DNA of 64,000 nucleotides, taken from positions 574 through 64,573 of the forward strand of contig JACQMY010000035.1 in NCBI GenBank assembly GCA_016203305.1. Direction: 5' to 3'. Position numbers and translations under genes: made by a program. Every line of letters starts with the position of its first letter. Position 1 is the first letter of the stretch. This DNA is from Candidatus Woesearchaeota archaeon. Its GTDB lineage: Archaea > Nanobdellota > Nanobdellia > Woesearchaeales > ARS49. The notes under the pieces are model-generated. The model saw only the letters and a list, made by a program, of their open reading frames with translations. It searched no databases and was not told the origin of the DNA. Below, piece after piece: positions 8,476 to 36,088 of the stretch.

Positions 8476-8640
8476 TGGGTATTGGGTGTTAGGAAGTAGG
8501 ACGCAGGGTGAAGGACGAAGGTATTAGGATGAAGGTTGTAGGACGTAGGATGAAGGGTGAAGGCGATTGGTTGTTGGCTATTAGCCCGTAGTAAGTGGTT
8601 TGTAGTTCGTAGTTGGTAGCCTACCTACTACTTACTACAT
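8476..8640. repeat. Array of ~22 degenerate heptamers (NNNNAGG/NNNGTAG), ending in a GGCTATTAGCC motif and a short CTAC-rich inverted segment
   Basis: gggtatt gggtgtt aggaagt aggacgc agggtga aggacga aggtatt aggatga aggttgt agg... then cctacctactacttactac. Confidence 0.7.
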
Positions 8641-8692
8641 GTCGGAAATTTTCAATTTCCGATCACGCTCGGAATTGCGTTACAATTCCGAC
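8639..8692 (+). mobile_element. ~54-bp twin-hairpin MITE-like element with 9-bp TIRs (GTCGGAATT...AATTCCGAC), copy A
   Basis: It contains two adjacent perfect hairpins (tcggaaatt/aatttccga and tcggaattg/caattccga). It is 96% identical to the inverted copy at 36037-36088. A cognate flank without the insert occurs at ~11040. Confidence 0.55.
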
Positions 8693-8762
8693 GCACTACA
8701 AACTTTTAACAGGGACAAAACTTATAAGCAAGCACTCAATCGCAGCAAATAGTGAGTGAAGA

Positions 8763-9071
8763 ATGGCGTACAAAGCAACGTACTTCAATGCAACAGCCGA
8801 TCCTCGTTGGTATTCTGTCCGAGAAGAACGCGAAAACGACACTGTTACAGTCACCGTCACAGGTGATTGGAAGAGAACTCCCGAACCAAAAGCAGCAGAA
8901 ATAGGACAACTCTGCCGCGAACTCATCGACCTCAAAAGAAGAATCAAAGAAAATGGAGAAAAAGCAAAAATCTATGTTGACATTGCCAATTTTCCCAATG
9001 ATGAAACGGCCGAACCACTTTACAAAACAATTCTTACCGCGGCAAGCGCACGCCTGCCTACACAAAAGTGA
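8763..9071 (+). CDS. Hypothetical protein (102 aa)
   Basis: The ORF has an SD-like sequence and its stop overlaps the GTG start of the next ORF. Confidence 0.4.
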   Translation: MAYKATYFNATADPRWYSVREERENDTVTVTVTGDWKRTPEPKAAEIGQLCRELIDLKRRIKENGEKAKIYVDIANFPNDETAEPLYKTILTAASARLPTQK

Positions 9072-9790
9072 AACGACACCATTCTGAACCACTCAAAGGA
9101 AAGTTGCTAGTCATAACAAATGTAGAAGCACCACCAACCTACGTAAGCGATCAAGAACTAGACCCTGTCAGTAACGCCAAAAAAACCGTAACAAGAAGAG
9201 TAATTCCCGCACACGTTGAAGAACACCCTATCGTCTACGCAAGCATAAACCCATACGACCTTGTAGAATTTGAACGCGCACAACCAAACCGCACAGAACA
9301 GTGGCGGGATGCAAGCGACGAATTCGAACGTCAAGACCGCAAAAATCCAGACACCGCACCAGTATTCCTAAAACTTCTCGCAGAAAGACCAAAAGCACGA
9401 TATGACGTGACCATTATAACACCGCATACTAACAGACTCGCCTACAGAGTCATGCTCGACGAGGTCAGAAACTATTTCAAACAGCACGCACAACAACGAA
9501 CGCCTGAAAAAGTTGCTCAAGATTTTGTCGTCATCCACAGCAGGCTCACACGCTTAGAACAAGCAGGGCTGATCGCAACCCTTGAAAGATTGCTTGAAGA
9601 TCAAAAAATGCCACCTTACTTTGACGCGCTACAAAGAATAGTACAACACCCTGGCGCAACTCCTCAAGTAATAGCAAATTATGTTCAACTAATGGGCCTG
9701 GCAGCACAAGGAATTGATATTTACGAGCCAAAAAGAAACATCTCGCGACTCGTGCTCAACGGCTCAAACCAGCGATATCACGAAAACTAA
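9068..9790 (+). CDS. Hypothetical protein (240 aa), translationally coupled to the upstream ORF
   Basis: The GTGA start overlaps the upstream stop. No recognisable motif. Confidence 0.4.
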   Translation: MKRHHSEPLKGKLLVITNVEAPPTYVSDQELDPVSNAKKTVTRRVIPAHVEEHPIVYASINPYDLVEFERAQPNRTEQWRDASDEFERQDRKNPDTAPVFLKLLAERPKARYDVTIITPHTNRLAYRVMLDEVRNYFKQHAQQRTPEKVAQDFVVIHSRLTRLEQAGLIATLERLLEDQKMPPYFDALQRIVQHPGATPQVIANYVQLMGLAAQGIDIYEPKRNISRLVLNGSNQRYHEN

Positions 9791-10321
9791 TCCTGCGAGT
9801 GCAATTGAAACAACATAAACCGCCTTGTTCCACTGCCAAACAGCAGCACCATCAAAAGGAGGAAAAGGAATCAAGTTAAAAACTCCCAACAACGCGTTAA
9901 TGTAATAACCATACAATGCTACATCAGTTGGCAAGAAGCCAGCTGAAAAGAAAAACAACACTGCCAACAACACGTTCATCATCGGGCCAGCAAGAGCAAT
10001 CCAACCATGCTGACGATGAGACGCGCCACGAATGAAAACACCACCAGGAGCTGCCAGAATGAAACCTGTAAAGCTTAACAAAACACCGATAAGCAACGCC
10101 TGATCATTAGCTCTGAACTCAGCCCAGCATTGGTAACGCTGAGCGACAAACTTGTGTGCCAACTCGTGCAACAAAAACCCAACACCCGCAGTAATCAAAG
10201 CAACAACAATCGCCCACGGCAAACGCGCACCAATACCAACCTTAGCGATAGCAAACATCAAAGAAACAAGCACCCAAGCCTTAACGATCTCCTTAATTTC
10301 AAACCTTGAAAAACTTAACAT
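9764..10321 (-). CDS. Site-2 protease family (M50) intramembrane zinc metalloprotease, short form
   Basis: HELAHKFVA (HExxH) lies in a TM helix, with the downstream NLIPFPPFDGAAV (LxPxxxxDG) motif. The protein is polytopic. Confidence 0.7.
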   Translation of the reverse strand: MLSFSRFEIKEIVKAWVLVSLMFAIAKVGIGARLPWAIVVALITAGVGFLLHELAHKFVAQRYQCWAEFRANDQALLIGVLLSFTGFILAAPGGVFIRGASHRQHGWIALAGPMMNVLLAVLFFFSAGFLPTDVALYGYYINALLGVFNLIPFPPFDGAAVWQWNKAVYVVSIALAGLVFVISLV

Positions 10322-10839
10322 TGTGCCCTCACCGCCGCATCTTCCAAAAAGCTAACGAACAACGCAGTATCATTCCGCCACAAAGCAGCCCGCGCGCCAT
10401 TCAACGAGCTAACAGCATCACTACAACGGCTCCGCTCAACAGTCATCACTACAAGACGAGTATCCAAACCAGCCAGAGAATCAAACAATTTCCTGCTCTC
10501 ACCCTTAGTACGATCAGGACAAGAAGACCAGGAAACCTGATCAACAAGATTAAACAAAGAACGCTCACTCACAAAAAACAACTCAGGCAACACCAAACCA
10601 CTTGGCTCATAATAACGATCGTCAGCACCAAACCTTAACAATTGGTCAATACGACGCAACAACACTCTACACTCGGCAGAAACCCAACCAGAAAACGGAG
10701 CCCTGGCAAGCTGCAAACGCTCCAAACGCAACACGGCAACATCATTAACCACCAGCCCAGTCTGTTCTGATTTGAAATCCTGCAACAAGAACAACACTGG
10801 CAATAACAACAACAGGAATATGACTAACCCCTTTAGCAT
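10315..10839 (-). CDS. Hypothetical signal-anchored/secreted protein upstream-overlapping the S2P gene
   Basis: N-terminal MLKGLVIFLLLLLPVLFLL, with a 7-nt overlap to the S2P start. Confidence 0.4.
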   Translation of the reverse strand: MLKGLVIFLLLLLPVLFLLQDFKSEQTGLVVNDVAVLRLERLQLARAPFSGWVSAECRVLLRRIDQLLRFGADDRYYEPSGLVLPELFFVSERSLFNLVDQVSWSSCPDRTKGESRKLFDSLAGLDTRLVVMTVERSRCSDAVSSLNGARAALWRNDTALFVSFLEDAAVRAQC

Positions 10840-10867
10840 TACGGATAGAACGAGAAGGGAATATAAA

Positions 10868-11100
10868 AAGGGTGCAGGTTGTAGGGTGTAGGACGAAGGC
10901 GGAAGGATGTAGGACGTATTATGAAGAGCGAAGGCATTAGGTTGTAGGACGTAGGTTGTAGGTATTAGGACGAAGGATGTAGGTTGTAGGACGAAGGCGG
11001 AAGGGCGGAGATAGTTTGTAGTTGGTAGTGTGTGGTTTGTAGACTACTTACTACCTACTACGCACTACAAACTCGTTCTGTAAGACGAAGGCGAAGGTTA
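10868..11100. repeat. Long (~33 unit) heptamer array, with a short inverted CTAC segment that matches the flanks of the MITE copy A (candidate empty site)
   Basis: gggtgcaggttgtagggtgtaggacgaaggcggaagg... gtttgtagactacttactacctactacgcactacaaac. Confidence 0.7.
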
Positions 11101-11165
11101 GAAAGATACACCACAGACTGGATTACATACAAAGAAATATAAACAAAAAACGCTTTCTCAAATCC

Positions 11166-12014
11166 ATGATCAAAAAAGAAGAGGGAGTTGTTCTTATGGT
11201 CATCATGGTCGTCGGCTTTTTTGCATTATTCTCAGTATGGATACTCCACCAAAACAACCCAGTTGTATACGCCATCTCGCCCACACCTATCCAAACGATT
11301 TCCTCATTTTACTCAGTGCCAGAATTTCCTGTTGATCTGTCCGGCAAGGACGATTGCGATTTAGTCGGTTATGAAAACGAAATTGAGAACTACATCAAAA
11401 CAATGAGACGACACGCAGCATACCATGAACAACAAACACAAGAAATCAGACAAGAAGCGTTCGCAACAAAAGCGGCAATTAATGCAGGACTGGAAAATCC
11501 AACATACAGCGACGCGTACGGACTGTTGCTATGCACGTCAGCACCTTTAGCACCAATGAGTTCATCTTCATACTACTCGAGCAGTTTCTCAGATGACCAG
11601 TGCGCCACTGCACTTGAAAACATGCAAAAAGCATACCAATATTATCTTGATGCAAAACAAGACTCAAAAGACCAATTAGCAGAGCTCAAAGAATTATTAG
11701 AAGACGTAAGCGATGGACTCGATTATCCGGAAAATTGCTATGAAGATATGCTCGATGCATACTATACGGGCGTCCATAGCGCTGCCACAGACGCAGAGAA
11801 AGCATACGAAGACATGCAAAAATACATTGAAGAAGCAATAGAAGAATGCGAAGACTTATGCGAAGAGGAAACGAGCTCATACGGTATTCCTATTGATCGC
11901 TCACCGTTTATCCAGCCAAGACCCGGAGTATTACGTCCAATTGTTCGCCAGCCCACACGACCTCAATTACCAAGACAAGGGCCACGCCAAGGGCCGATTC
12001 GGCAAAGAAAATAG
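11166..12014 (+). CDS. Hypothetical N-terminally membrane-anchored acidic protein with a basic Pro/Gln/Arg-rich C-terminus
   Basis: A TM segment at residues ~8-28, an acidic middle (EE/DD-rich), and a ...RPQLPRQGPRQGPIRQRK tail. Confidence 0.4.
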   Translation: MIKKEEGVVLMVIMVVGFFALFSVWILHQNNPVVYAISPTPIQTISSFYSVPEFPVDLSGKDDCDLVGYENEIENYIKTMRRHAAYHEQQTQEIRQEAFATKAAINAGLENPTYSDAYGLLLCTSAPLAPMSSSSYYSSSFSDDQCATALENMQKAYQYYLDAKQDSKDQLAELKELLEDVSDGLDYPENCYEDMLDAYYTGVHSAATDAEKAYEDMQKYIEEAIEECEDLCEEETSSYGIPIDRSPFIQPRPGVLRPIVRQPTRPQLPRQGPRQGPIRQRK

Positions 12015-12108
12015 AAGGACGAAGGCGGAAGGAAGTAGGTTGTAGGAATTAGGACGAAGGATGACGGTATTAGGTTGTAGGATGAAGACTGGTGGCTATT
12101 AGCCAGTG
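12014..12108. repeat. Heptamer array ending in GGCTATTAGCC, between convergent genes
   Basis: aggacgaaggcggaaggaagtaggttgtaggaattaggacgaagg...tggctattagccagtg. Confidence 0.65.
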
Positions 12109-12177
12109 TTCTAAGATAAATATTCTTTAGCTGCTTATGACATCTGGTCGTTCAGACAGTACGGAAAGGTGAGAATT

Positions 12178-12909
12178 CTAATCCAGTGACTTCCATAGAT
12201 GCTCAAAGTATTTTCGGTAATTGTCTGCAAGCATCTTATGCTTGATTACAAATGCCATTGGTTTCTCCAGCCATAATACGTTAGCGACATTGTCGCCGTA
12301 GATGTAGATTACGTTGAGCCCGCTCAGTAATTTTGGCAGGATTTTATATTCGTAGTATTTTGATTTTGTGATGGGTTTGTTTCTTGCTTCATGCACGAGG
12401 AGCAGTTTCCATTTGCAACGTCGTTTTTCTCTTGTCTTGTTGTATTGGGGCCAAAAGTAGGGCAGTCTGTTTTCTACGTCGCCTGTTGCACCAATAAATA
12501 ATACTTCTTTGTGTTCCAGGCAGTCTTTGAGTATTGTTTTGATTCCCTCGGTTCCACGATAAATCTCAGCCTCGATTTCGGAGGTTTGCGACCTGAACAT
12601 GCTATTCAGTTCGGGCAATAATTTCTGGGTTGCGCATTTTAGCTCATCAATTTTTGCTTTCTTCTCATCCAAGTATGTTAGTACATTATCAGGGTTCTTG
12701 GCTTGAAAGAATTTTACTTTATTTTCTATAACAAACGTTACCAGTCCTTTCTCTATGAGCTTGTTTAACGCGTCGTAAAGATTCCTTCTGTAAATTCCTG
12801 TTTCTTCTATAATGCGTCTTGCTGAGGTAGCACCGACACTTAAGAGCGTCAGATATGCTTTAATCTCTGTTTCTGTCAAACCTATCTTTTTCAGTATTTG
12901 TGCATCCAT
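12178..12909 (-). CDS. TrmB-family transcriptional regulator
   Basis: N-terminal wHTH LTETEIKAYLTLLSVGATSARRIIEETGIYRRNLYDALNKLIEKGLV, typical of TrmB, with a ~240-aa two-domain layout. Confidence 0.65.
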   Translation of the reverse strand: MDAQILKKIGLTETEIKAYLTLLSVGATSARRIIEETGIYRRNLYDALNKLIEKGLVTFVIENKVKFFQAKNPDNVLTYLDEKKAKIDELKCATQKLLPELNSMFRSQTSEIEAEIYRGTEGIKTILKDCLEHKEVLFIGATGDVENRLPYFWPQYNKTREKRRCKWKLLLVHEARNKPITKSKYYEYKILPKLLSGLNVIYIYGDNVANVLWLEKPMAFVIKHKMLADNYRKYFEHLWKSLD

Positions 12910-12997
12910 AACTTTATCACTACGTTATAGTATTTAAACTTGTGGTAGTCTATGGATACTACGAAACTTAATAGTAGAGGTTGTTCTTCTGTTACAT

Positions 12998-13396
12998 ATG
13001 GAGTATATGTCAGGTTTAAGTACGGCAGTGTTTGAAGTCGAAGCTGCTTCTCCGCAATTGGAGGAGTTTATGCGTTCTAGCGGTGCTTCCTCATCGTCAG
13101 GAAGATTAGAGGAACGTATCGTGACTACGTACCGTGTGCCGATTCTTATACCCGTGGACCGTGGATATTTAGTTGGCGAAGTTGGTTCTTATCCAATCGA
13201 CCGTTTTCTGGATTGTCCGGTATGTGATAGATGGAAACTCCGAGGTCTCAGCCAGGCAGACTTACTGCAACAAATTTTTGATGGCGCAGGACCCATCAAA
13301 CCGATAAAATTGAGAGATATCGTCGCAAAAGTAGAAAATGAATCAGGGCCACATAAAATGTATGTTAGTTATATGTCTGGATCATTATTGGGCTGA
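12998..13396 (+). CDS. Hypothetical protein (132 aa)
   Basis: The ORF is divergent from the trmB-like gene, and a TATA-like tttaaa lies in the shared upstream region. Confidence 0.35.
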   Translation: MEYMSGLSTAVFEVEAASPQLEEFMRSSGASSSSGRLEERIVTTYRVPILIPVDRGYLVGEVGSYPIDRFLDCPVCDRWKLRGLSQADLLQQIFDGAGPIKPIKLRDIVAKVENESGPHKMYVSYMSGSLLG

Positions 13397-13518
13397 TCTT
13401 TCTATTCCATAATTTCGTAATTTAAAACACCTACTATTCCCAAACCGTTCGTTTACGTCTACCTTGTCAGCCTGTTAGAATAGCACATTCTTAAGCGGCC
13501 TATTTGTAGGCTTTGACA

Positions 13519-13785
13519 CTACAACCCGAACGCTTCTGTGAATTCTTTGACTTTTGCGAAGTCTTGCAAGAACTTTCTGCCTTCATCGGTGAGGGCGAAC
13601 ATCATCTTTCCTTTATGGTCTGTTTCAACGATAAGTTTGCGCTGTTTGAGCTCCTCAAGATAGATCTTCATCCGCTGGTGGGAAAGGTTTGACTTGTACA
13701 ACAAATGGGTCGGAAGAATCCTGCCGCCCTTCTCTTCAATTGCCTTCAACATGTCATAGACAATGTCGATCTTTGCACGCTTCAT
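13519..13785 (-). CDS. Small winged-helix DNA-binding protein
   Basis: An 88-aa wHTH-like sequence (IVYDMLKAIEEKGGRILPTHLLYKSNLSHQRMKIYLEELKQRKLI). Its 4-nt overlap with the upstream membrane protein gene suggests coupling. Confidence 0.5.
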   Translation of the reverse strand: MKRAKIDIVYDMLKAIEEKGGRILPTHLLYKSNLSHQRMKIYLEELKQRKLIVETDHKGKMMFALTDEGRKFLQDFAKVKEFTEAFGL

Positions 13786-14528
13786 ACTTGCCTTTTAAGA
13801 CGAACGACTTGTACACAAACAACTTTCGGATTACGCGCTGCCGCACTCTTCAAACGCAACAACGCGGCCAACAAGAACACAAAACCCAATGTTTGAGTAA
13901 CGTGAGCAGTAACGAACAAAAAGTTCCACGCCTGAGTGGACAAAATATAGAAACCCTGAACCAAAAATTGCACTTGAGCAGCAGTCAACAAGGCAAACGC
14001 CTCAAACACCAAAGCAGAAGCCTTGTTACCAACACGCTTGTAGTTCTGATAATAAGCAAGAGTTATGAACGCCAAAAACACCAAACTCAAGCCGTAAAAA
14101 GTACGGTAATAACTCCCGCTCATCAACAAGCTAGGAACCAAAGTCAAAAACAACAACGCAACAATCCGCCTGTCATGAATCTTATGAGTAATCGCTATCA
14201 AGATTATGTATCCAAGAAACGCCAACATAATATGAGTAACGTACCCTGCATAAAACACCAGCCCAGCAATACGCTCGGGCAATTTGATAAAAACCTCACG
14301 CAACAAAGCATCAGTCAAAGCCCTGGAAAGAAAAGAAACAGTCAACAAGCTAATACTGACAGTAAACCAGCCATACTTACGCTCGCCAGTCAAGCGCCAA
14401 GCCTTATAGCTGGCAAACGCCACCAACAAAGCAATAACACCAGCCAAAGCTTCCAACGCAGCATCAACACCCAAAAACCAGTGCGGGCCATGCAAGTAGA
14501 CATTAATCATAACGACGAAAAAAGACAA
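13782..14528 (-). CDS. Hypothetical polytopic membrane protein (248 aa)
   Basis: 6-7 hydrophobic helices. Confidence 0.4.
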   Translation of the reverse strand: MSFFVVMINVYLHGPHWFLGVDAALEALAGVIALLVAFASYKAWRLTGERKYGWFTVSISLLTVSFLSRALTDALLREVFIKLPERIAGLVFYAGYVTHIMLAFLGYIILIAITHKIHDRRIVALLFLTLVPSLLMSGSYYRTFYGLSLVFLAFITLAYYQNYKRVGNKASALVFEAFALLTAAQVQFLVQGFYILSTQAWNFLFVTAHVTQTLGFVFLLAALLRLKSAAARNPKVVCVQVVRLKRQV

Positions 14529-14591
14529 CTTTGCTTTTAAGCTTTATGGATGCAAAATCCAAATTAGTTCTTCACAAGGGATATTAAAACG

Positions 14592-14730
14592 AGGATAAAG
14601 GGTGAAGGGCGTAGGTATTAGAACGAAGGATGAAGGTTGAAGGTATTAGGACGAAGGTTGTAAGGCGAAGAATGCAGTCTTCATCCTTCAACCTTATACC
14701 TTCATCCTCTCTATTCTTCACCCTTATACC
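14592..14730. repeat. Heptamer array plus inverted complement, forming a ~140-bp imperfect palindrome
   Basis: gataaagggtgaagggcgtaggtattagaacgaaggatgaaggttgaaggtattagg...cttcatccttcaaccttataccttcatcctctctattcttcacccttatacc. Confidence 0.7.
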
Positions 14731-14746
14731 TAAAACGAGGTGCAAC

Positions 14747-14866
14747 ATGAAATACGAAACATGGAACGAAGACCTGCAAGCCATCAAAAGTTTGCTGGAC
14801 GCAGGAGCAATATCTGAAGAAGAGGCAACAGAAATGAGAAAATACTTGGAAGCGCTGGCTGCCTAG
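14747..14866 (+). CDS. Small SHOCT-like protein (39 aa)
   Basis: GAGGTG SD 6 nt upstream of the ATG. LQAIKSLLDAGAISEEEATEMRKYL resembles the SHOCT motif. Confidence 0.4.
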   Translation: MKYETWNEDLQAIKSLLDAGAISEEEATEMRKYLEALAA

Positions 14867-16644: not shown

Positions 16645-17314
16645 CCTCCAACTGACGCGCGCCCTTCAAAGATTTCAGTTCCTGTCCACCGATCAACTTG
16701 CCATTTGAAACAATAACAAGCTCAGTGCACCACTTCTCCAGTTCCCTCAAATCATGACTCGAAATAATAACCGTCTTGCCCAACGCGTGAATACGATGGA
16801 TTAAAGACCAAACCATTTCCTGCAAGAAAACATCCAAACCAGTAGTTGGCTCGTCAAGCACAAGAATAGGAGGATCATGAATCAATGCCAAGGCAATATC
16901 CAAACGACGCTTCATGCCACCAGAAAGCTTCGATGCAATGCGATGCCTCGCTTCTTCCAACTGCATCAAAACAAGCAACTCCTTGATGCGTGAGGAAATA
17001 ACCCTTGAAGAAAGCCCGTACATCCTGCCAAAGTACCAAAGATTCTCAACAACAGAAAGTTGTGGGTAAAACGAATATTCCTGACTAGCAAAACCAACCA
17101 TCTTCTTCAAAGAGGCCCTGTTTGGCAGAAACACTTTACCAGAACTTGGCGCGATCATGCCAGTCAACACGCGCAACAAAGTAGTCTTACCAGCACCACT
17201 CCTGCCAACCAAGCCAAGAAGCGTACCCTGATTTATTGACAAGTTTACGTTTGAAAGAACATGCTTGCTGCCAAAACGCAGCGAAACATCACACAACTGC
17301 ATGATTGCTGACAT
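16610..17314 (-). CDS. ABC transporter ATP-binding protein
   Basis: Walker A GRSGAGKTTLLRVLTG, signature LSGGMKRRLDIALAL, Walker B ILVLDEPTTGLD. Confidence 0.85.
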   Translation of the reverse strand: MSAIMQLCDVSLRFGSKHVLSNVNLSINQGTLLGLVGRSGAGKTTLLRVLTGMIAPSSGKVFLPNRASLKKMVGFASQEYSFYPQLSVVENLWYFGRMYGLSSRVISSRIKELLVLMQLEEARHRIASKLSGGMKRRLDIALALIHDPPILVLDEPTTGLDVFLQEMVWSLIHRIHALGKTVIISSHDLRELEKWCTELVIVSNGKLIGGQELKSLKGARQLEVVFREVCDARV

Positions 17315-17405
17315 AGACGATGAGGGAAAGCAGCCCGTTATAAAGGTTACTATGTGTTGACTATTATATAGTGACTACATGACTAAAGTATCCGTGGGCC
17401 AGAAA

Positions 17406-17990
17406 CTATTTCTGAAGTATTTTTCGTATTTCCTCATTGAAAATCTTGGCCCTGCCGAGGCTGGTCTGAGCTTTGTTTTGCATTGCGATCTCTCCGAGCT
17501 CGTACGTGAATGTTGTTCGCTTTTCCTTCTCGTAATAGTACTCCTCGATCAGCATTTTTGCTCTTTCCTTTCCAAGAAGCTCTGCTGTCTCTGTTTTTGC
17601 TTCCGCGAAGTCTTCGATCAATTTCTTCTGGAGCTTGCCGGTCAAGTAGAAGTAGAACACAAGGGCATCAAATGTGACTGCATGAACTCCTATTTCTGTT
17701 TTGATTTTGATTCCGTTACTTTCGAGCAGTGCCCGTGCCATGTAAAACATCGAGTAATAACTTGTGTTAATGACCCAGAGGAATCCATTAAAATCAGCAT
17801 AACCAATTTGACTTTGCAGTTGTTGGCTTGTTGACATTTCGAATAACAGCTTAGCGGCACTGAGTGAATTCCTGGCGTTTGTCAAGAAGAAATCGACGAA
17901 CTTCTTTTGACTGTCAATAACTCTCTTTCCTTCCTTTACGCATTTTGGCACTCTGCCCCTGATTTCTTTGAGTTTTTTATCGTCTAGCAT
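17406..17990 (-). CDS. HEPN-domain protein (putative toxin of a HEPN–MNT pair)
   Basis: A ~190-aa helical protein, overlapping and downstream of a nucleotidyltransferase gene. The assignment rests mainly on context. Confidence 0.5.
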   Translation of the reverse strand: MLDDKKLKEIRGRVPKCVKEGKRVIDSQKKFVDFFLTNARNSLSAAKLLFEMSTSQQLQSQIGYADFNGFLWVINTSYYSMFYMARALLESNGIKIKTEIGVHAVTFDALVFYFYLTGKLQKKLIEDFAEAKTETAELLGKERAKMLIEEYYYEKEKRTTFTYELGEIAMQNKAQTSLGRAKIFNEEIRKILQK

Positions 17991-18573: not shown

Positions 18574-18711
18574 AACTTTAAAGGTATAGTGCTATATCTT
18601 TTTGGATATATAAACCTTTCTGTTTAAGACAGCCAAAAAACCATAGTCAGACCAATAGAAGAACTGCACAGAAGAGAACAGGCAAAGATATCCGTTCATC
18701 CAAATAATTAT

Positions 18712-22789: not shown

Positions 22790-22872
22790 GGTTCATGGGT
22801 ATTAGGCGTTAGGTATTAGGATGAAGGAAGAAGGCGGAAGATCTTCAACCTTCGCCCTTCCGCCTTCACCCA
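22790..22872. repeat. Heptamer array plus inverted complement (hairpin)
   Basis: gggtattaggcgttaggtattaggatgaaggaagaaggcggaag atcttcaaccttcgcccttccgccttcacc. Confidence 0.7.
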
Positions 22873-23238: not shown

Positions 23239-23640
23239 ATGATCGTCAGAAGAATAACCATCGTAACCAATCGACGACCAACAACGCCGAACCTCAACGA
23301 CGAACTCCAATGGCTCGGCAACAGTTTAGGCTTGCTCGGCGAGCGCGACAGAGACAAAAGCTGCTTCCGCATCTTCATAGAGCTGCTAAAAGCAATAAAA
23401 GCAACAGGCGGCCTAACAAGCGACCAACTCTCAGACAAACTTGCCCTAACAAGAGCAACAGTGGTACACCACCTCAACAGCCTACAAGAACGAGGCATAG
23501 TCCTCCACCAAGGCAACCAATACATAATGCGAGAACACCAACTCACCAATCTAGTAGACGACATAAAACGAGACATGGAACGAGCACTATCAGACATGAA
23601 AAAAGCAGCAGAAGAACTGGATAGAATTCTGGAACTATAG
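23239..23640 (+). CDS. Winged-helix transcriptional regulator (ArsR/MarR-like)
   Basis: ELLKAIKATGGLTSDQLSDKLALTRATVVHHLNSLQERGIV. Confidence 0.55.
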   Translation: MIVRRITIVTNRRPTTPNLNDELQWLGNSLGLLGERDRDKSCFRIFIELLKAIKATGGLTSDQLSDKLALTRATVVHHLNSLQERGIVLHQGNQYIMREHQLTNLVDDIKRDMERALSDMKKAAEELDRILEL

Positions 23641-23733
23641 GTATTAGGCGTTAGGACGAAGGTATTAGGTTGTAAGACGAAGGCGGAAGGAAGAAGGTAT
23701 TAGGCGTTAGGTTGTAGGGCGGAAGGATGAAAT
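23636..23733. repeat. Heptamer array (G-rich only)
   Basis: taggtattaggcgttaggacgaaggtattaggttgtaagacgaaggcggaaggaagaaggtattaggcgttaggttgtagggcggaaggatg. Confidence 0.7.
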
Positions 23734-24813: not shown

Positions 24814-24850
24814 TTAGTGTGTAGTTTGTAGAGCGAATAAAGAACGAAAA

Positions 24851-26269: not shown

Positions 26270-26363
26270 TTCCTTGCAAGCGCTCCTGCTTCCTTGAGTT
26301 CTGCATCATAAAAACCAGAAATGACACGCACTATATTAACTTTTTGTGCGGAAAAAATTAGAG

Positions 26364-29300: not shown

Positions 29301-32300
29301 AGCAAAGTTTTGACTTCCGGCAAACTCAGTTGTAACATTAAACACGCCAGCAAAGTTAAAAGTCTGATTCGTACTCAAAGGAGCACTACCTGAAACAACA
29401 AACACTCCTGCTACTGAAATGTTAACAAGACCTGTTGTGTTAGCCAAGCTTGCAACAAGCTGAACCGTGCTGCTCTTTGATACTGTGATGTTTCCAGCAA
29501 CACCATTCAACGTCAAAGTCAAAGCGCTCTGCGCCTGCAAAATAGTATAATTGCTCGCAGTGCTGATATTTGTGTTGTTAGACGCATCAGTTGCGAACCA
29601 CCTGTAGGAATGATTACCCGCACTTGCATTTGAAATGTTAACTTCAAATGTGTCAGAAGCGCCAGCACGCAATGCAGTCAAATTAGTGCCATTAAACTCC
29701 AAGCGCACAGCAGCGACAGCATGGTCATCAGTAATATTTCTCCGGAAATTCGCCAATGAACCAAATACTGAGCTGTTCACAGGTACAACAGTCTCATTAC
29801 CGAAAGATGGCGGAAGAGTGTCAACAACAAAAACTGTAAACGAACGGTTTGCAGCAGAATAATTCTGATTGCCATCAAATGATGCGTTAATGGTGTAATT
29901 GCCTGGAATTATGAAAGTTTGATTTATACTTGCAGGATTATTCTGCGACAAGATCAAGGTTCCATTGTTGAACAACTTAACCAAACCAGAGGTATTAGTC
30001 AGATTTGCGGAAATGTTCAATATCGTCCTTGGCGAGACAGTGATGTTCGCAGCAGAGCCATTCAACAACAAGCTCAAATCACTTTGCGCGCGCAAAATCG
30101 ACAAAACAGAAACATTCGTGCTGTTCAAATTATTCGCACCATCCCTTGCAAACCAGCGAAAAGAATGGTTGCCGGCAGGAAGGTCCAAAACAGTAATGTT
30201 ATAGAAACTGCCATTCTGAGTGACATTTGTCAAGTTCTGACCATTCAGCTCGAATGTCACATTAGTGATATTTCCATTATCAGTCCAGTTAATGCCCCAC
30301 ATATAGCTCGCATTCGGTGCATAAACAGATCCATTCAACGGAGTAATTTGCCCACCAGGAGCAGGAGGAGTGATGTCAGAAATGTTCAAAGTGAAGTTGC
30401 CAGATGTGCATGCACCAACGTTATCACAAACCAGCAAAGGTATCACAAACACGCCATTGAATGCAGGCGTGAAGTTGATAACTCCGGTTAAATTGCTGAT
30501 GTTGAACAATGAGGCACTATCATTGAACGTTAAAATGTCATTCGTGGGATCACTGTCAGTCGCGTTCACATCAAAGAAAAACTCCCTGCCTGCCTCGCCA
30601 ATCTGGCTAGTGAAGTTCACAAACGCAGGAGCATCATTCAAGTTTGTAACACTAAAAGTGATGTTCTGCGAAACATTTTTTCCGGTACGATCGAACAAGA
30701 ACAAAGTCAAGTTCAAACTTCCAGTTGCATTAACTATTGGAACAAAAGCCAATCTGTCATTAGGAACGTCCAAGACCATATTAACAAGAGAAGTGTTCAA
30801 AACAGTAACCAACGTCAAGTTCGACTGGTTTGCAAGCTGGAACTTCCAAGAAAGATTGTTATTATTCGCGCCAGGACCATCCTCAGGATCATTCTCAAAT
30901 GGAGTAAGATCAATACTGTTATTCTGCTCCTCAAAGGTCGTGACGTTCGGAATAACTACTGTGAAGAATGGAACATCATCAACACCGTTCAAAACAATCG
31001 TGAACTCAGCAGTAACATTCTTACCAAACGGATCCTCTGCCGTCACGTTCACTTTTCTGACACCATTAACATTGAACTGAGGAATTATCAGCATACTGTT
31101 ATTCGAATTGTTAAACGTCAAAGTCACATTCGCCACAGACGACGCACGATATCCCAACGGATCACCATCAACATCAAAGAAAACCTGACTAAGATTTACT
31201 GTGAAAGTTGTGCTTTCATTAAATGGAGGGATTGTAGGAACACTCACGACAACAGGAGCATCGTTAACAGGAGTAACGTTAATTGTGATGTTCGCAGTAG
31301 AGGACAATCCCTGCGGGTCTGTTACAATCAATGTTGCCGTACCTATCCCGAAATCATCCGCAACAGGAACAACCGTCACGAACTGGTTCTGCTCGATCGA
31401 AACCGTGAAGCCAACAGTGCCAGAAACATTCAGAATGCCATACGTGAGCTGAGCCAGAGGAGTATCCACATCGGTCGTGAACTGGTGCAGGTTGACAACA
31501 CGAACGGCAGAACCGTCTTCAGTTATGTTAATCTGCGGCAATGCTGAAAACACCGGAGCACTTGCACTTGCAGAAACAATTATTGCGATAGTGTCAAACG
31601 CTGTCGCGTTCTGCGTGTCACGAACCGTAAAAACCACGTTGTCTGTGCCCACAAAGCCAGTGTTCGGCGTAAACTGCACGTCCTGGCCAAAGTCAACTCG
31701 AATTCCGATACTCGTGTTGCCAGAAAAGTTCAACGTCAAACTACCATCAGGATCCTGCGCGTCATCAATGAAAGGACTCACGTTAAACCGCGTCACGCTG
31801 TTTGCAAGAATCGTCAAGTTCTGCGGCAAATTAATTGTTGGAGGCGTATTTCCTGTTGAAACATTGCCGGGCTGCAAGAGAACAGAAACCGTTGCGTCAC
31901 CAAAAATGTCAACACTGTCCGTCACAGTTGTGAAATTTCCACTGCTGGTATTTGTTCCATTCACAACATACAAATAATTACCTTCAGGAACATTTGAAAA
32001 TCTAGCAGACCCATTCTCATCAGTTCTGTTCGAACCAATACCGGCCAAAGTCACGTTCGAACCGTTAATCTTCGCGCCAGTCTGAGCATTAAGAACATTA
32101 AACGTAACATTCCCACTCTGAGTTCCAATTACATTCACAAGCATACTCACTTCAGCAGTTATTTCCGGCAAAGTGGTAGGCAAAGCCGAGTTTGCACGCG
32201 CACGAACAGTAACATTATGCACGCCAGCCAGAGTTGGAACAAAAGAAAACTGTTGAAGCGTGGCATTTACAGGATCGGGGTTTTTGATCAACGTATTTCC

Positions 32301-33284
32301 TAACGAGCTGAATACTGTCGCGCTATTCCTTGCCACTATATAGTCAACATCCGTCTGCACAGGCGTCAAAGTTGAACCGTTGCCCTGCGCGTGATTTGTG
32401 ATCTTCGTGTATGAAAATCCCAACTCCAGACCAACACGCGCGCTTGTCGTCGTCTGCAGGTCAGCAAGAATGCTATAAAACTGGGAAGCAGGAGAAGTAA
32501 CAGTAAAAGGCGATTGCGTGGACTGAGTTTCCTGAGACGCACAAGTATCATCAACAACACTCGCACTCACGCGCGCAGTGAAAGTACCATTGGCTTGAGG
32601 GATGAAAGCAAACGAAACAGGAACTGTTGAATCTGCAACAATCGCGGTATTTGTAGCAGCGGTAAAGTTCTGCTGCTGGCTGTGAATGACCGTGCTGCCA
32701 TTCAAAACTTCAAACAAAACAGAAGTGTCGGCAGCCCAGAACTCCTGAACAAATTGAGGAGGAAGATACTGCACGTCCGTCCTCGTGATGCGGAACGCAC
32801 TCGATGTCTCAGCATCCAACTGAGCGCTAGTCTGGAACGCCAACGGCTTGTTCAGCTCAACGTTATTCGTAAAGCTCAACGCGCCAACACTCGCACGACA
32901 AGTATTAGGATACTTTGTAAAAGTGTTTGACTCTGAAGTTTGCGCAACACCACCAATGCCACGCGTGTTCCAAGTATGCTTACCAACCAAAGGACGATAA
33001 CCCTTTGCAAGGAAATACTCAGCATACCCGAACGCTGTTGCCAAACTATCAGGATAACGGAAAATCACATTACCATCAGTTGCCTGTGGTCCTTTGATAA
33101 TCTGACCAGAGAAAGCACCAACGCTGGCACAATTCGCGTCATTACAGTTCACAACAGTAGAGTTCAGCGAGACATTTATTCCAGGCAAGTCAGCATACGA
33201 AAAACGATACGTCACATCAACAGCAGCATACGCTACCTGAACTGCCAACAATGCTACCAATGCAAGTAACAATTTCTTCATCAT
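26364..33284 (-). CDS. Giant secreted surface protein (2,306 aa): signal peptide, ~4.5 Ig-like tandem repeats of ~230 aa, a beta-solenoid segment, a PKD domain, a poly-Gly linker and a C-terminal TM anchor. It is extremely rich in N-x-S/T sequons.
   Basis: MMKKLLLALVALLAVQVAYA signal. Repeated FRRxVTDD...GNHSYRWFA...LNG.AGN.TV modules. WNFGDGTNS PKD motif. A GGGGGGGGGGGGGSGGGAG run. PEKPVEKPVEKVAEKP then IAIVVIIVLLGLAAYAIM at the C-terminus. Confidence 0.8.
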   Translation of the reverse strand: MMKKLLLALVALLAVQVAYAAVDVTYRFSYADLPGINVSLNSTVVNCNDANCASVGAFSGQIIKGPQATDGNVIFRYPDSLATAFGYAEYFLAKGYRPLVGKHTWNTRGIGGVAQTSESNTFTKYPNTCRASVGALSFTNNVELNKPLAFQTSAQLDAETSSAFRITRTDVQYLPPQFVQEFWAADTSVLFEVLNGSTVIHSQQQNFTAATNTAIVADSTVPVSFAFIPQANGTFTARVSASVVDDTCASQETQSTQSPFTVTSPASQFYSILADLQTTTSARVGLELGFSYTKITNHAQGNGSTLTPVQTDVDYIVARNSATVFSSLGNTLIKNPDPVNATLQQFSFVPTLAGVHNVTVRARANSALPTTLPEITAEVSMLVNVIGTQSGNVTFNVLNAQTGAKINGSNVTLAGIGSNRTDENGSARFSNVPEGNYLYVVNGTNTSSGNFTTVTDSVDIFGDATVSVLLQPGNVSTGNTPPTINLPQNLTILANSVTRFNVSPFIDDAQDPDGSLTLNFSGNTSIGIRVDFGQDVQFTPNTGFVGTDNVVFTVRDTQNATAFDTIAIIVSASASAPVFSALPQINITEDGSAVRVVNLHQFTTDVDTPLAQLTYGILNVSGTVGFTVSIEQNQFVTVVPVADDFGIGTATLIVTDPQGLSSTANITINVTPVNDAPVVVSVPTIPPFNESTTFTVNLSQVFFDVDGDPLGYRASSVANVTLTFNNSNNSMLIIPQFNVNGVRKVNVTAEDPFGKNVTAEFTIVLNGVDDVPFFTVVIPNVTTFEEQNNSIDLTPFENDPEDGPGANNNNLSWKFQLANQSNLTLVTVLNTSLVNMVLDVPNDRLAFVPIVNATGSLNLTLFLFDRTGKNVSQNITFSVTNLNDAPAFVNFTSQIGEAGREFFFDVNATDSDPTNDILTFNDSASLFNISNLTGVINFTPAFNGVFVIPLLVCDNVGACTSGNFTLNISDITPPAPGGQITPLNGSVYAPNASYMWGINWTDNGNITNVTFELNGQNLTNVTQNGSFYNITVLDLPAGNHSFRWFARDGANNLNSTNVSVLSILRAQSDLSLLLNGSAANITVSPRTILNISANLTNTSGLVKLFNNGTLILSQNNPASINQTFIIPGNYTINASFDGNQNYSAANRSFTVFVVDTLPPSFGNETVVPVNSSVFGSLANFRRNITDDHAVAAVRLEFNGTNLTALRAGASDTFEVNISNASAGNHSYRWFATDASNNTNISTASNYTILQAQSALTLTLNGVAGNITVSKSSTVQLVASLANTTGLVNISVAGVFVVSGSAPLSTNQTFNFAGVFNVTTEFAGSQNFAPANLTRFVSVIDTQAPVFGGELIVPANNSFFPQAQYVFRRNVTDDVSVSNVSLEFNGANVTTQRVGLTNEFEANVSTLAAGNYSYKWFARDTSSNLNVTAASVYSVRQAFSNLSLTLNGTAGNVTVVQGSTIPLFANLTNTSGTVSIFKNGALLASGAAPLTRNELFGVQGVFNITAVFAGSQNFTNSSVTRFVVVPDSTPPVFGSELLSPASPANFSPVYTFRRDVTDNLAVANMTLELDGLNRSALRVGVSNTFEVNLTGLTVGNHSYRWFANDTSGNVNLTANATYTINPGIGAITLTINGVAASTSVQVNDAATIVANVTNPFGGFVNLFINGSLAQNGTSPLTNVTNFTSLGTFNVTAVFPGDVNATGASATLFVTVTPVITQTSIVPASGTLLNLSSFIMTVTTNGVTSCRWSTQDVAQGSMSNGFSGNGTTHTANITNLTLGSNNVFVACNNQSNVTNSDLVYVAQNILDGSTLTGVNSMNNSVFTSGSINVSTVLNANMTTTTSSNSSLINVNGSNSTLRNVSGLDSRFTNSLLTNCVVRNSTVKGITATNCVFTDSFVDPSNLTGSIIQGSSSIVESNVTFSNVTNSTIVNSNINNSVIVGSVIVNSQFSNAVVTSANITNNVISSGTIAVGGITYNATASGPANLSQVIPLPPVASFTQTATAVQPNAVITFTSASTDPNIPGPLNDSLSFFWNFGDGTNSTSSSVNKSYNTTGTFPVTLTVTDRFNFTSVGSSSVTVAVPPPPSVGGGGGGGGGGGGGSGGGAGVRIALTEVPVAREVFVGQPMSFTIGGVVLPSSIFMRKVDLGRQTTEWALNAQFIPVAKGESGLFDLSKDGVADLDLKVLSFGRNSATVEFKLANGQTVANVPFLPTFNIQPRPEKPVEKPVEKVAEKPVVEPTEVTVPVTAVVKEGLFTKLGRLLSNAKKSIAAKFDVAPDSQAVKIAIVVIIVLLGLAAYAIMSMFEPLSFD
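27600..30350 (-). repeat. In-frame tandem ~690-bp coding repeats (~4.5 copies) within the giant surface protein gene
   Basis: Recurrent protein blocks (FRRNxTDD / GNHSYRWFAxD / LNGxAGNxTV / FAGSQNF). Coordinates are approximate. Confidence 0.5.
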
Positions 33285-34933
33285 CAGTTGCCCGTACCTG
33301 GCTGAGTATCTCCACCACCGTCAATTGGAGGCGGCGTGCTTGGGCCAGGAGAGGGACTTGGAGACGGACTCGGGGACGGGCTTGGAGACGGACTCGGAGA
33401 CGGACTGGGCGACGGGCTTGGAGAAGGGTCCGGAGACGGACTGGGCGACGGATCAGGAGATGGATTTGGAGATGGGCTCGGAGACGGACTTGGAGATGGA
33501 GGAGCTGCAGAACTGTCACGATCTTTCTTGCCAGAAGTCAGCGCATAAGCAGTTGCTCCTCCTGCCGCGACTGTTTCCATCCACGACCATGCTTCCATGA
33601 CGCGTGGCCGCAGATTCTCCCCGATAAAATTTGTCCCAGAATTCTTTGCGCCACGTGTGCGACTGGCACCCTCCTGGAGTACATCGGCGAGTTGTTCAAC
33701 ATCGCTGGAGCCATCTGGTGAATAGACATTGCGCGTCCAGGAATTACGACCATGACCGCTCGCATAGTGGAAGATTAGATTTATTGCAGGCACCGCGTAA
33801 ATTGCAAGATTGGGATGCAAGAGGCTCGGATCAACACAGTGCTGATCGAATGTTTCACGGATTCTCCTAACCACATGTGCTTGAAGAGCAAGCGTATCAG
33901 GGCCGTTCAAACCACGCTTTCGTGCGATTTCAAGCGGAATGCGCAACGCATAAACAGCTCGATTCTGAAATGCAAGGTGCCTGTTTTCATACGTGTCCTC
34001 TGCAACAAGAGTTTGCACATCAAGCATCAATTCCCGCATGAAGTTTTCTAGCGTCAGCCCCCTGCCACGTGCAATACCCTGCTCGTACAGTACGCTATTA
34101 TTCTCAAACAAATCTTGCAGCGTTTCACCTTTATATTTATCCCACACCGCGTCAGGAGTAATAGTTGCCGCATTATCCTCCAATGCAAGAGTAAGCTGTA
34201 TCACTCTCCGGTAGGCATCGTCCATAGGTTGAACTCTGAATTCAAGTGCGTTCGCATGTGCTACACCAGAGAGAACAGCGCGGAGGAACTCCAGAGATGC
34301 CCTATTATACTCTGCAATGGACTTATGCTCCACATTGTTTCCTGAAATCGCGGCATCACGTGCTGCCTTATTCGCAGGATTGATTGTGCCCAAAAGTTTA
34401 GTAAGTTCAGTTTCGCACGCTGCCAACTGCTCCGCACTCAATGGTTCAATATCACCAACACTGTCAAGTGTACTGTTCGCGTCAACGTTCGTCATCAAAT
34501 ATCTCTGAACAAGATTTTGTTCGAACAGCCGTGCAAGCAGTGTGTTCTGGCTGTGAAGTTCTGCAACTAACGGAGGTAATGCGGCTGCTGATTGAGTCGC
34601 ATAAGGTCTCGCGGCGAGGAAACGCGTGCTAACAAACTCATCGATCGTTCCATTATATTCGTACCTCGTTGCCTGTGCATTAACTGCACGAACCGGAACG
34701 TCCATATCTGGCTTATATCCCACAGGCGTTGCGCAACCGCTTCCTGACAAGGAAACAAGACCTACTAGTCCGAGTATGCTGCCTCCCGCGGTAAATCTGC
34801 GATTTGCAGGCAGCTTTTCAGTTTTATCTGAAACATCACGATCGTAGAAACGACCCACTAAATACCCAAAAAGTCCTCTGCGAGAAGATTGTTCCGGTGA
34901 GTATACCATTTGCCCCCAAGACGCGAAAAACAC
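33284..34933 (-). CDS. Putative Tat-exported lipoprotein with a C-terminal (PS)n linker, translationally coupled to the giant surface protein gene
   Basis: NRRFTAGGSILGLVGLVSLSGSGCA is a twin-arginine motif with a lipobox Cys. The C-terminus is SPSPSPSPSPNPSPDPSPSPSPDPSPSP... and the stop overlaps the next start at 33284. Confidence 0.55.
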   Translation of the reverse strand: MFFASWGQMVYSPEQSSRRGLFGYLVGRFYDRDVSDKTEKLPANRRFTAGGSILGLVGLVSLSGSGCATPVGYKPDMDVPVRAVNAQATRYEYNGTIDEFVSTRFLAARPYATQSAAALPPLVAELHSQNTLLARLFEQNLVQRYLMTNVDANSTLDSVGDIEPLSAEQLAACETELTKLLGTINPANKAARDAAISGNNVEHKSIAEYNRASLEFLRAVLSGVAHANALEFRVQPMDDAYRRVIQLTLALEDNAATITPDAVWDKYKGETLQDLFENNSVLYEQGIARGRGLTLENFMRELMLDVQTLVAEDTYENRHLAFQNRAVYALRIPLEIARKRGLNGPDTLALQAHVVRRIRETFDQHCVDPSLLHPNLAIYAVPAINLIFHYASGHGRNSWTRNVYSPDGSSDVEQLADVLQEGASRTRGAKNSGTNFIGENLRPRVMEAWSWMETVAAGGATAYALTSGKKDRDSSAAPPSPSPSPSPSPNPSPDPSPSPSPDPSPSPSPSPSPSPSPSPSPSPSPSPSPGPSTPPPIDGGGDTQPGTGN

Positions 34934-34985
34934 CAGCCATTATATAAAGGTTTCACTTTTTTAGCATTTGACAATAGTAACAAAC

Positions 34986-35165
34986 TAGGATGAAGGATGT
35001 AGGGCGAAGGATGAAGGTATTAGGATGAAGGCGGAAGGAAGAAGGGATTAGGCATTGGGTATTAGGACGAAGGGCGAAGGTGGAAGGAAGAAGACGAGGA
35101 TGAAGGTGGAAGGGTGAAGGAAGAAGGTTGGAGGACGAAGGCTTTTGGCAATTAGCTATTAGAAA
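34986..35165. repeat. Longest G-rich heptamer array in the window (~25 units), ending in GGCAATTAGCTATTAG
   Basis: ggatgaaggatgtagggcgaaggatgaaggtattaggatgaaggcggaaggaagaagggattaggcattgggtattaggacgaagggcgaaggtggaaggaagaag... Confidence 0.7.
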
Positions 35166-35204
35166 TCAGGCACGAAAAATAATGGGAAAAAGAATCAGAA
35201 AAAA

Positions 35205-35393
35205 TCACTCGGCATCCGCCCAAGCATCTGCCGCCTCATCGCTGGCAGCTTCATCACTTTCCAAGTCCTCTTCATACTCCGTATCTTCATCGACAGGAAC
35301 CTTGTCATCCTCCTCAAAGGTCTCTTCCTTTTCCTCTTCAGATTCCTGCTCTACTTCTTGTGTTGTCTCCTTTTTCACCTTCTTTCCAACCAT
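35205..35393 (-). CDS. Small highly acidic protein (62 aa). It is uncertain whether this is a real gene.
   Basis: MVGKKVKKETTQEVEQESEEEKEE...DEAADAWADAE, 12 nt downstream of rpl15e. Confidence 0.3.
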   Translation of the reverse strand: MVGKKVKKETTQEVEQESEEEKEETFEEDDKVPVDEDTEYEEDLESDEAASDEAADAWADAE

Positions 35394-35405
35394 TCATTAC
35401 CACCT

Positions 35406-35972
35406 CTACAGTCTTCGTGAATGCGAACGTCGCGAAGGTCGAGCCTTCTCAGCGCCCATGCCCTTATACCGGAGTCCGCGCACCTTCCTGCCCGCGCTAG
35501 TCAACCCGCGGAAAACACGGCCAACATGCTGTGGCTCGCCTATCCAAGAAATCCGATGATCAGCAAGAACACCAGGATGAGACCTGTCAACCAAGACAAC
35601 CTCAAACCAGTAATGCTTACCATCCTCGTCAACATAATAAGAATTCAAAACTTCACAATTCTTGAAAACACGCCCAGCACGCTCCTCTGCAATCATCTGA
35701 TAGTTCTTACGCAGATTCAAACGAGCACCCATGTTGTGCGAATGCCTGCCACCACTCCAATCGTGACGCCTGTGCGATCCACGAGAAACACGCTGGCGAA
35801 CAAGCATAAAACCCTGCTTAGCACGATAGCCAACAGAACGCGCACGATCCAACCTAGTCGGGTGCTCGATACGTTGAGTAACAGGCTCGCGCCTCCAAAG
35901 AACCATACGATCCCGGTGAGCAGCACCAGCGAATTCCTTCCACGACTTTTGCAAGTATTTATAGACACCCAT
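35406..35972 (-). CDS. rpl15e: Ribosomal protein L15e
   Basis: MGVYKYLQKSWKE...YRAKQGFMLVRQRVSRG...YWFEVVLVD is the canonical L15e sequence. Confidence 0.9.
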   Translation of the reverse strand: MGVYKYLQKSWKEFAGAAHRDRMVLWRREPVTQRIEHPTRLDRARSVGYRAKQGFMLVRQRVSRGSHRRHDWSGGRHSHNMGARLNLRKNYQMIAEERAGRVFKNCEVLNSYYVDEDGKHYWFEVVLVDRSHPGVLADHRISWIGEPQHVGRVFRGLTSAGRKVRGLRYKGMGAEKARPSRRSHSRRL

Positions 35973-36036
35973 GTGAGAAGCGGGAAGAGGAGGGCTTTTT
36001 AAAGGTTGCGTTTTTGGTTTGCAGTTGGTAGTTCAT

Positions 36037-36088
36037 CGGAATTGTAATGCAATTCCGAGGTGATCGGAAATTGAAAATTTCCGACATG
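36037..36088 (-). mobile_element. Twin-hairpin MITE-like element, copy B (inverted relative to copy A)
   Basis: The reverse complement differs from 8639-8692 by one indel and one mismatch. Confidence 0.55.

Follow-up and report, generated by a model that had tools for sequence, protein, structure and literature searches.

Elements derived from IS200/IS605 insertion sequences, with a TnpA/TnpB source element in the genome and cleavage sites 10-20 nt from the feet of their hairpins, include the palindrome-associated elements (PATEs) of Haloquadratum and cyanobacteria. The MITEs (miniature inverted-repeat transposable elements) of archaea, exemplified by the SM elements of Sulfolobus, measure 80-350 bp and carry target-site duplications (TSDs) and terminal inverted repeats (TIRs) that match those of a resident insertion sequence (IS). 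DPANN archaea are tiny-celled organisms with genomes of approximately 1 Mb, short intergenic spacers, and few recognized mobile elements, and we know of no small extragenic palindromic repeats described in them so far. In bacteria, the RAYT-associated repetitive extragenic palindromic (REP) sequences and bacterial interspersed mosaic elements (BIMEs) are extragenic palindromes of 20-40 bp that occur singly, in pairs, or in clusters (PMC3733652). Double-hairpin and repetitive hairpin-forming elements, to which no function has been assigned, occur in fungal and sponge mitochondria (PMC2800124). This study analyzed a 64,000-nt stretch of the metagenome-assembled genome of a Candidatus Woesearchaeota archaeon (contig JACQMY010000035.1; the whole stretch is hereafter called the window), in which a twin-hairpin unit is present in two inverted copies, A and B, located 27 kb apart, and compared this unit with the aforementioned systems. 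A first-pass annotation of the same DNA had described the unit as a MITE-like mobile element whose two copies bracket an accessory-rich and possibly invertible segment.

The results revealed that the unit consists of two diverged copies of a palindrome of approximately 21-23 bp (stem base TCGGAA/TTCCGA) joined by a 5-6-nt linker. It is neither a classical MITE nor an island boundary. We give about an even chance to the explanation that it is a small noncoding dispersed palindromic repeat, similar to double-hairpin and REP/BIME elements, that was copied between heptamer arrays and has no transposon-type ends. The parts of the unit are as follows.

8639-8692, plus strand: copy A of the twin-hairpin unit, 54 nt, ATG-TCGGAAATTttcAATTTCCGA-TCACGC-TCGGAATTGcgttaCAATTCCGA-C
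8642-8662, plus strand: hairpin 1 of copy A, TCGGAAATT-ttc-AATTTCCGA, a perfect 9-bp stem
8669-8691, plus strand: hairpin 2 of copy A, TCGGAATTG-cgtta-CAATTCCGA, a perfect 9-bp stem
36035-36087, minus strand: copy B of the twin-hairpin unit, 53 nt, its hairpin-2 part reproduced in Logan contig L001
36064-36084, minus strand: hairpin 1 of copy B, same sequence as hairpin 1 of copy A
36036-36058, minus strand: hairpin 2 of copy B, loop cATta instead of the cGTta of copy A

Both copies are intergenic, and their palindromes of 21 and 23 bp lie 5-6 nt apart. The first-pass annotation had recognized a real inverted repeat with two adjacent perfect stem-loops in each copy (four perfect 9-bp stems were found), although its coordinates for copy B, 36037-36088, were off by 1-2 nt. 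It had counted one indel and one substitution between the copies; these correspond to a G in the linker and a G/A difference in the loop of hairpin 2, to which a C/T difference at the final base has to be added. All three differences fall outside the stems, in which none of the 36 positions differ. The pattern for each half of the unit had exactly two matches in the 64 kb when up to three mismatches were allowed, and dinucleotide-shuffled sequences yielded none; neither further copies nor, under looser rules, degenerate copies were found in the window. Apart from the four stems of the two copies, the window has no perfect hairpins of 9 bp or more (loop 3-8), and it contains only four further ones of 8 bp. 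The folding energies of the two copies as single-stranded DNA were -17.9 and -17.3 kcal/mol, compared with an average of about -5 for shuffled sequences (z about -7), and those of the RNA folds were -23.9 and -21.0. Hairpins 1 and 2 are diverged versions of a single palindrome in which both arms have changed and the changes are compensated, so that the stems remain perfect and Watson-Crick throughout, with no G-T positions. These perfect stems and compensated differences suggest constraint at the DNA level, or units born as inverted duplications, rather than selection acting purely on an RNA. Independent Logan assemblies reproduced the copies: all of copy A is present, along with the unique sequence downstream of it, in contig L002 (run SRR12113383), which starts at the left edge of the shared sequence, and contig L001 (SRR12113384) starts within hairpin 2 and includes this part of copy B together with the adjoining flank. 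An assembly artefact is thus an unlikely source of the repeat. The repeated unit is discrete, and its left boundary is sharp.

The sequences surrounding the unit are heptamer repeats, and one site elsewhere in the window resembles the flanks of copy A without the insert.

8587-8638, plus strand: heptamer array, GTAG-phase and then CTAC-phase, forming the left flank of copy A
8693-8704, plus strand: right-flank 12-mer GCACTACAAACT, identical at the empty site (11062-11073) and matching at 10 of 12 positions beside copy B (GAACTACCAACT)
11039-11073, plus strand: paralogous unfilled site, contiguous counterpart of the joined copy-A flanks
36088-36130, minus strand: CCT-phase and CTAC-phase heptamers between the stop codon of the family-B DNA polymerase (PolB) gene and copy B

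Both copies are embedded in the CTAC-phase portion of such arrays. After positions 8639-8692 were deleted in silico, the joined flanks of copy A aligned without gaps to 11039-11073 across the junction (32/35 identical, E 8e-8), and this was their top non-self match in the window; the empty site that the first-pass annotation had proposed near position 11040 was thereby borne out as a paralogous site. At copy A, the insertion boundary can be placed only to within 2 nt (AC). All three left flanks, those of copy A, copy B, and the empty site, end in YAC, a shared ending of only 3 nt inside a repetitive array, and the left flanks of A and B are identical at 10 of 14 positions. On the preferred explanation, a copy of the whole two-hairpin unit would have passed from one intergenic heptamer array to another, in the position that follows ...YAC and precedes G(C/A)ACTAC(A/C)AAC. 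The likeliest route, we infer, would recognize the hairpins, or make use of them, in single-stranded DNA. One candidate for this step is an enzyme of the Y1/HUH type that is encoded elsewhere, by analogy with REP/BIME and IS200/IS605-derived elements; template switching or ectopic conversion between near-identical heptamer arrays is another. The array setting may reflect either site-preferring insertion or arrays that supplied the homology for ectopic copying.

Such arrays fill most intergenic spacers of the window in degenerate form, as (G/T)(A/T)AGGNN, then GTAGNNN, and then CTACNNN. On the plus strand, 15 AGG-phase arrays were counted against 3 CCT-phase arrays, although this strand is C-rich overall. 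Where an array runs into its own reverse complement, as some do, the two make up a long imperfect palindrome with AGATCT or a similar sequence at its centre. A small palindrome recurs at array ends.

Heptamer arrays, first set: 960-1028, 3167-3214, 8491-8640, 10869-11072, 12016-12082, 14592-14731
Heptamer arrays, second set: 22798-22870, 23639-23722, 34987-35145, 36088-36130, 44396-44478, 45130-45215
Imperfect array palindromes with 27-nt arms, 78-81% complementary: 3167-3214 and 22818-22865; also approximately 14660-14690, 44430-44450, and 985-1000
Small palindrome GGCTATTAGCC at array ends: 8576-8586 and 12095-12105; variants near 35143-35160 and 44484-44520

Runs of GTAGTTT-type heptamers were also observed at 46854-46874 and 47291-47341, inside the 3' part of an open reading frame (ORF) of more than 5790 aa (46625-63997, minus strand); either the arrays invade coding sequence or the true end of this ORF lies elsewhere. 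No heptamer arrays were found in any of the relative loci (approximately 71% identity) or other DPANN loci checked, metagenome contig L123 included. The arrays are thus lineage-specific and are perhaps the more unusual feature of the window; their palindromes may be the equivalent, in this lineage, of the hairpin blocks of its relatives.

Those hairpin blocks indicate that the unit is part of a wider set. We compared the region from the PolB gene to the ribosomal protein gene rpl15e in seven relative loci (L125, L127, and L130-L134). Relative to L130, L132, and L134, the orthologous post-PolB spacer of L127 has a clean insertion of 126 nt that comprises four hairpins (TCGGAATTTTATC...GATAAAATTCCGA, TCGGAAAGCaaaGCTTTCCGA, TCGGAAATGCcatGCATTTCCGA, and TCAAAAATcttttATTTTTGA; short forms of hairpins 2-4, TCGGAAAGC.., TCGGAAATGC.., and TCAAAAAT..), so that a filled site and orthologous empty sites exist at the level of the family. 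L125 carries four different hairpins directly before the TATA box of rpl15e. No hairpins were found at this spacer in the remaining five loci, L130-L134, in which the layout of the rpl15e promoter is the same, indicating that the hairpins are dispensable for this promoter and that they were gained or lost between relatives.

Further members came to light among the matches listed in a scan of a 596-Gb genome collection with the pattern TCGGAAWTKN{3,5}MAWTTCCGA, a loose pattern whose listed matches are mostly chance palindromes and do not amount to a census. Loci of other Woesearchaeota and Nanoarchaeia (L049, L070, L081, and L118) and metagenome contig L123 contain arrays in which as many as 12 perfect hairpins follow one another with a period of approximately 26 nt; the stems are 8-10 bp long and of the type TC(G/A)(G/A)AAWTN, the loops measure 3-5 nt, and neighbouring units are often joined by the palindrome GAGCATGCTC. 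L123, from an organism of 30% GC, was the one locus retrieved by a metagenome scan with hairpin 1 and the start of hairpin 2, and it is a 12-hairpin array rather than a copy of the 54-mer. Among the matches listed, ATG/CAT flanks, which the search pattern did not impose, were found in 5/13 archaeal and 8/107 bacterial cases (Fisher p = 0.005); hairpin 1 of the window carries the same 5' ATG, and the window linker TCACGC resembles GCATGC. The spacing from the TCGGAA arm to the TTCCGA arm was 9, 11, or approximately 30 nt among members, and such variation fits a stem base rather than a protein operator of fixed spacing. Approximately 9 of the 12 hairpin clusters located lie in tandem or convergent spacers, past the 3' end of a gene, and 3 lie in divergent spacers, roughly as expected with no preference, and the neighbouring genes are functionally unrelated. 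In L081, L012, and L023, hairpin chains precede the 16S rRNA gene or have tRNA genes as neighbours, a placement that is not general. In L081, a Nanoarchaeia metagenome-assembled genome, positions 1900-2052 hold CATG-linked hairpins directly upstream of the 16S rRNA 5' end (TCAAAAACAC...GTGTTTTTGA-gCATGc-TCGAAAATCA...TGATTTTCGA-cATG). Scans of viral contigs for the hairpin gave chance or coding matches only (L129, for example, is a peptide repeat in a phage-like contig), and BLAST against phages and plasmids gave no match. We found no account of chained hairpin arrays in DPANN archaea in the literature consulted. The twin-hairpin unit belongs to this wider set of chained intergenic hairpins in several DPANN loci, and the set comes and goes over the time-scale on which related Woesearchaeota have diverged.

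The unit can be set beside the described systems. Similar to PATEs, it has a hairpin at each end, no TIR, no TSD, and an apparent insertion point beside what may be a short conserved sequence, and recognition of single-stranded hairpins of the PATE type would explain its anatomy. In contrast to these longer elements, its boundaries lie 1-3 nt from the hairpin feet, and no TnpA or TnpB was found among the window ORFs scanned. The SM elements resemble it as small non-autonomous repeats in archaeal intergenic DNA, but none of their traits was observed in the unit, namely the 80-350-bp size, the IS-matching TIRs, and the TSDs. The mitochondrial double-hairpin elements are likewise short units of one or two hairpins that are intergenic and clustered, have no flanking duplications, and are scattered among close relatives (PMC2800124). 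They are organellar and unrelated in sequence to the window unit, and the resemblance is therefore an analogy only. The likeness to REP/BIME sequences consists of a lack of coding capacity, the absence of a TIR/TSD logic, a patchy distribution among relatives, and a conserved stem base below a variable upper stem (PMC3733652). However, REPs are imperfect palindromes with a direct GTAG or CGTC tag, and they occur in tens to hundreds of copies, usually with a RAYT gene, whereas the window has two units with perfect stems in 64 kb, no RAYT among the ORFs scanned, and an archaeal host, and the tag, if there is one, is CATG. On the opposite strand, GTAG precedes hairpin 2 by 4 nt in both copies and follows hairpin 1 at a distance of 3 or 10 nt, but near the unit it occurs only as part of the surrounding GTAG/CTAC heptamers, 3-10 nt from the stem feet, and the family members in other DPANN loci have CATG instead.

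The two copies reside in unrelated contexts of an archaeal chromosome that encodes Rpl15e, PolB, an Lhr helicase, a TrmB-family protein, DnaK/DnaJ, an ABC transporter, and two giant ORFs. The divergent spacer between the Lhr gene and an ORFan operon holds copy A, and the spacer between the tandem PolB and rpl15e genes holds copy B, 63 nt past the PolB stop codon. Both copies have the same orientation relative to the downstream gene, end 70 nt (A) and 62 nt (B) before its ATG, and precede candidate TATA-like boxes that were read by eye.

5266-8469, minus strand: Lhr helicase gene
8703-8710, plus strand: second candidate TATA-like box, cTTTTAAc, read by eye
8721-8728, plus strand: candidate TATA-like box, cTTATAAg, read by eye, approximately 35 nt before the ATG at 8763 of the ORFan operon
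35406-35972, minus strand: rpl15e
35996-36003, minus strand: TATA box of rpl15e, TTTAAAAA, 23 nt before the ATG, with the same layout in hairpin-free relatives
36151-38556, minus strand: PolB gene, its product approximately 72% identical to the closest other polymerases

The ORFan operon just downstream of copy A (8763-9790) comprises two genes encoding proteins of 102 and 240 aa. Neither protein matched a Pfam, PHROG, or NCBIfam family, and the 240-aa protein had no homologue among 5.8 billion proteins. No Rfam family matched the twin-hairpin unit or anything else in the window, and no tRNA genes were found in the window. A divergent spacer of 76 bp contains, at 43837-43869, a near-perfect palindrome (CCAGTATATAAAAAttactTTTTTGTATACTGG) that has the appearance of a symmetric bidirectional TATA promoter.

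The gene content and order around copy B bear on the proposal of an accessory or invertible segment bracketed by the copies. Between the two copies lie ordinary chromosomal genes, including those for DnaK, DnaJ, and an ABC transporter as well as rpl15e. The order of PolB, rpl15e, a small ORF, a gene of approximately 500 aa, and a gene of 1900-2300 aa was found in 7/7 relative loci; in L125 and L133, a few extra genes separate PolB from a 48-aa ORF. This shared order marks the arrangement across copy B as the ancestral, uninverted one. The copies do not delimit an island and very probably do not delimit a mobile or invertible segment; this part of the first-pass annotation was not upheld. The 48-aa ORF, which encodes four cysteines (zinc-ribbon-like), lies between PolB and rpl15e in the relatives and is preceded there by a conserved palindromic promoter-like motif, TTTTATAT-N16-ATATAAAA; both are absent from the window.

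Promoter-like motif in relatives: L125 17002-17035, L127 12538-12569, L131 12498-12529, L133 13838-13869, L134 12415-12446

The explanations for the unit can be weighed against these observations. A classical MITE with TIRs and TSDs, mobilized by an IS-encoded DDE transposase and forming with its two inverted copies a composite or invertible 27-kb segment, is very improbable. The inverted orientation of the copies and their short terminal complementarity (GTCGGAA...TTCCGAC) are what such an element would show. However, the reported 9-bp TIRs proved to be GTCGGAA, a 1-nt indel, and TT in copy A and only 6-8 bp (TCGGAA..TT) in copy B, and such ends follow automatically from two related palindromes in tandem. 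No consistent TSD was found (copy A has only the 2-nt AC ambiguity, and copy B is flanked by AC to its left and by AT to its right), and Pfam revealed no transposase, integrase, or HUH enzyme among the window ORFs scanned. Against the composite or invertible segment stand the presence of DnaK, DnaJ, and rpl15e in the interval, the ancestral gene order across copy B, and the absence of a GC-skew break at either copy. Of the mobile-element idea, what stands is a discrete unit in heptamer arrays, a paralogous empty site, and hairpin blocks that are patchy among relatives; the hallmarks of a classical MITE were not supported. A recombinational origin, in which the unit arose once, has no dedicated mobility, and was copied by ectopic gene conversion or recombination between similar CTAC-phase arrays, the empty site being just another array, seems unlikely to us but accounts for several facts. 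Both copies and the empty site lie in the same kind of array, the flank similarity extends beyond the unit on both sides, and the window has two copies only, no TSD, and no transposase among the ORFs scanned. Against it, the left boundary shared by A and B is sharp, and relatives devoid of heptamer arrays carry related hairpin blocks at different positions, which implies that the family spreads without arrays.

A function in cis is rather doubtful, but it fits several observations. The unit would then be a selected structural element, a cruciform or RNA hairpin pair acting as an insulator, a terminator, or an upstream control of the downstream promoter, and its spread would be incidental. The copies have the same orientation and position ahead of two genes, with stems kept perfect and changes restricted to loops and linker; copy B follows the PolB stop codon closely, the L127 and L125 blocks likewise stand right after a stop codon and right before a promoter, and chains precede the 16S rRNA gene or adjoin tRNA genes in three loci. 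However, 5/7 relative loci have no hairpins at the same rpl15e promoter and an unchanged TATA-to-ATG layout, the divergent spacer around copy A leaves it no co-directional upstream gene that it could terminate, and neither copy is followed by a T-run of at least 5, as an intrinsic terminator would be. The variable arm spacing, the near-absence of a preference among spacer types, and the unrelated neighbouring genes also argue against such a function, and co-regulation of the ORFan operon with rpl15e is implausible. On the palindromic-repeat explanation, which we prefer, the unit would be selfish or neutral, and it is probably neutral or at most a weak spacer or insulator between neighbouring transcription units. 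Several points weigh against this preference: only two copies are visible in 64 kb, no mobilizing enzyme was found among the window ORFs scanned, no TSD accompanies the copies, and the right flanks of A and B are identical at 10 of 12 positions, so that the unit may be longer or may have spread by recombination between arrays. A cis-acting function under selection would also be compatible with the perfect stems, with the restriction of differences to loops and linker, and with two promoters being preceded by copies in the same orientation. The evidence for a family comes from approximately 12 loci, the majority retrieved with a pattern in which the stem sequence was fixed. A broader proposal, which we advance tentatively and consider hardly more than a possibility, is a DPANN-wide system of chained perfect palindromes, the twin-hairpin unit being one part of it, that would be kept similar across distant lineages by a conserved hairpin-specific protein that makes, moves, or uses them. 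Also tentatively, its stem bases would be (C)TC(G/A)(G/A)AA...TT(Y)(Y)GA(G), with linkers that are often GAGCATGCTC; candidates for the protein are an archaeal counterpart of RAYT/HUH enzymes or a factor of DNA/RNA processing or termination.

Several other identities were considered and rejected. A dimeric transcription-factor operator is inconsistent with arm spacings of 9, 11, and approximately 30 nt and with the absence of hairpins at the rpl15e promoter in 5/7 relative loci. Whichever way the genes point, GC skew stays below zero (-0.04 to -0.25) and AT skew above it over the full length of the plus strand, which places the window inside one replichore, and the uniformly negative GC skew without a switch speaks against a replication origin or terminus. 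A casposon or other self-synthesizing transposon, which the PolB gene beside copy B might bring to mind, was dismissed on the grounds that PolB and its neighbours are syntenic in all relative loci and that rpl15e lies inside the interval. No boxes of a C/D-box or H/ACA small RNA common to both copies were recognized by eye. A link to genes of the translation apparatus, hinted at by the rpl15e, 16S rRNA, and tRNA neighbours, was not upheld by the other loci.

For the window, the outcome is mainly sobering: the element exists, but it is small, occurs in two copies, and defines no island. To our knowledge, the unit is a form of small extragenic palindromic repeat, a known kind of element, in an archaeal group that is new for such elements. 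Twin-hairpin units break short-read assemblies, as seen in the Logan contigs, which terminate within the element or at its edge, and such units could also seed rearrangements. Hairpin chains that are patchy among close relatives yet have the same stem base across distant lineages point to an as yet unrecognized hairpin-specific mobilizing enzyme or cis-acting signal. If the DPANN-wide system is real, it would constitute an archaeal REP-like system in genomes otherwise thought to be nearly free of mobile DNA.

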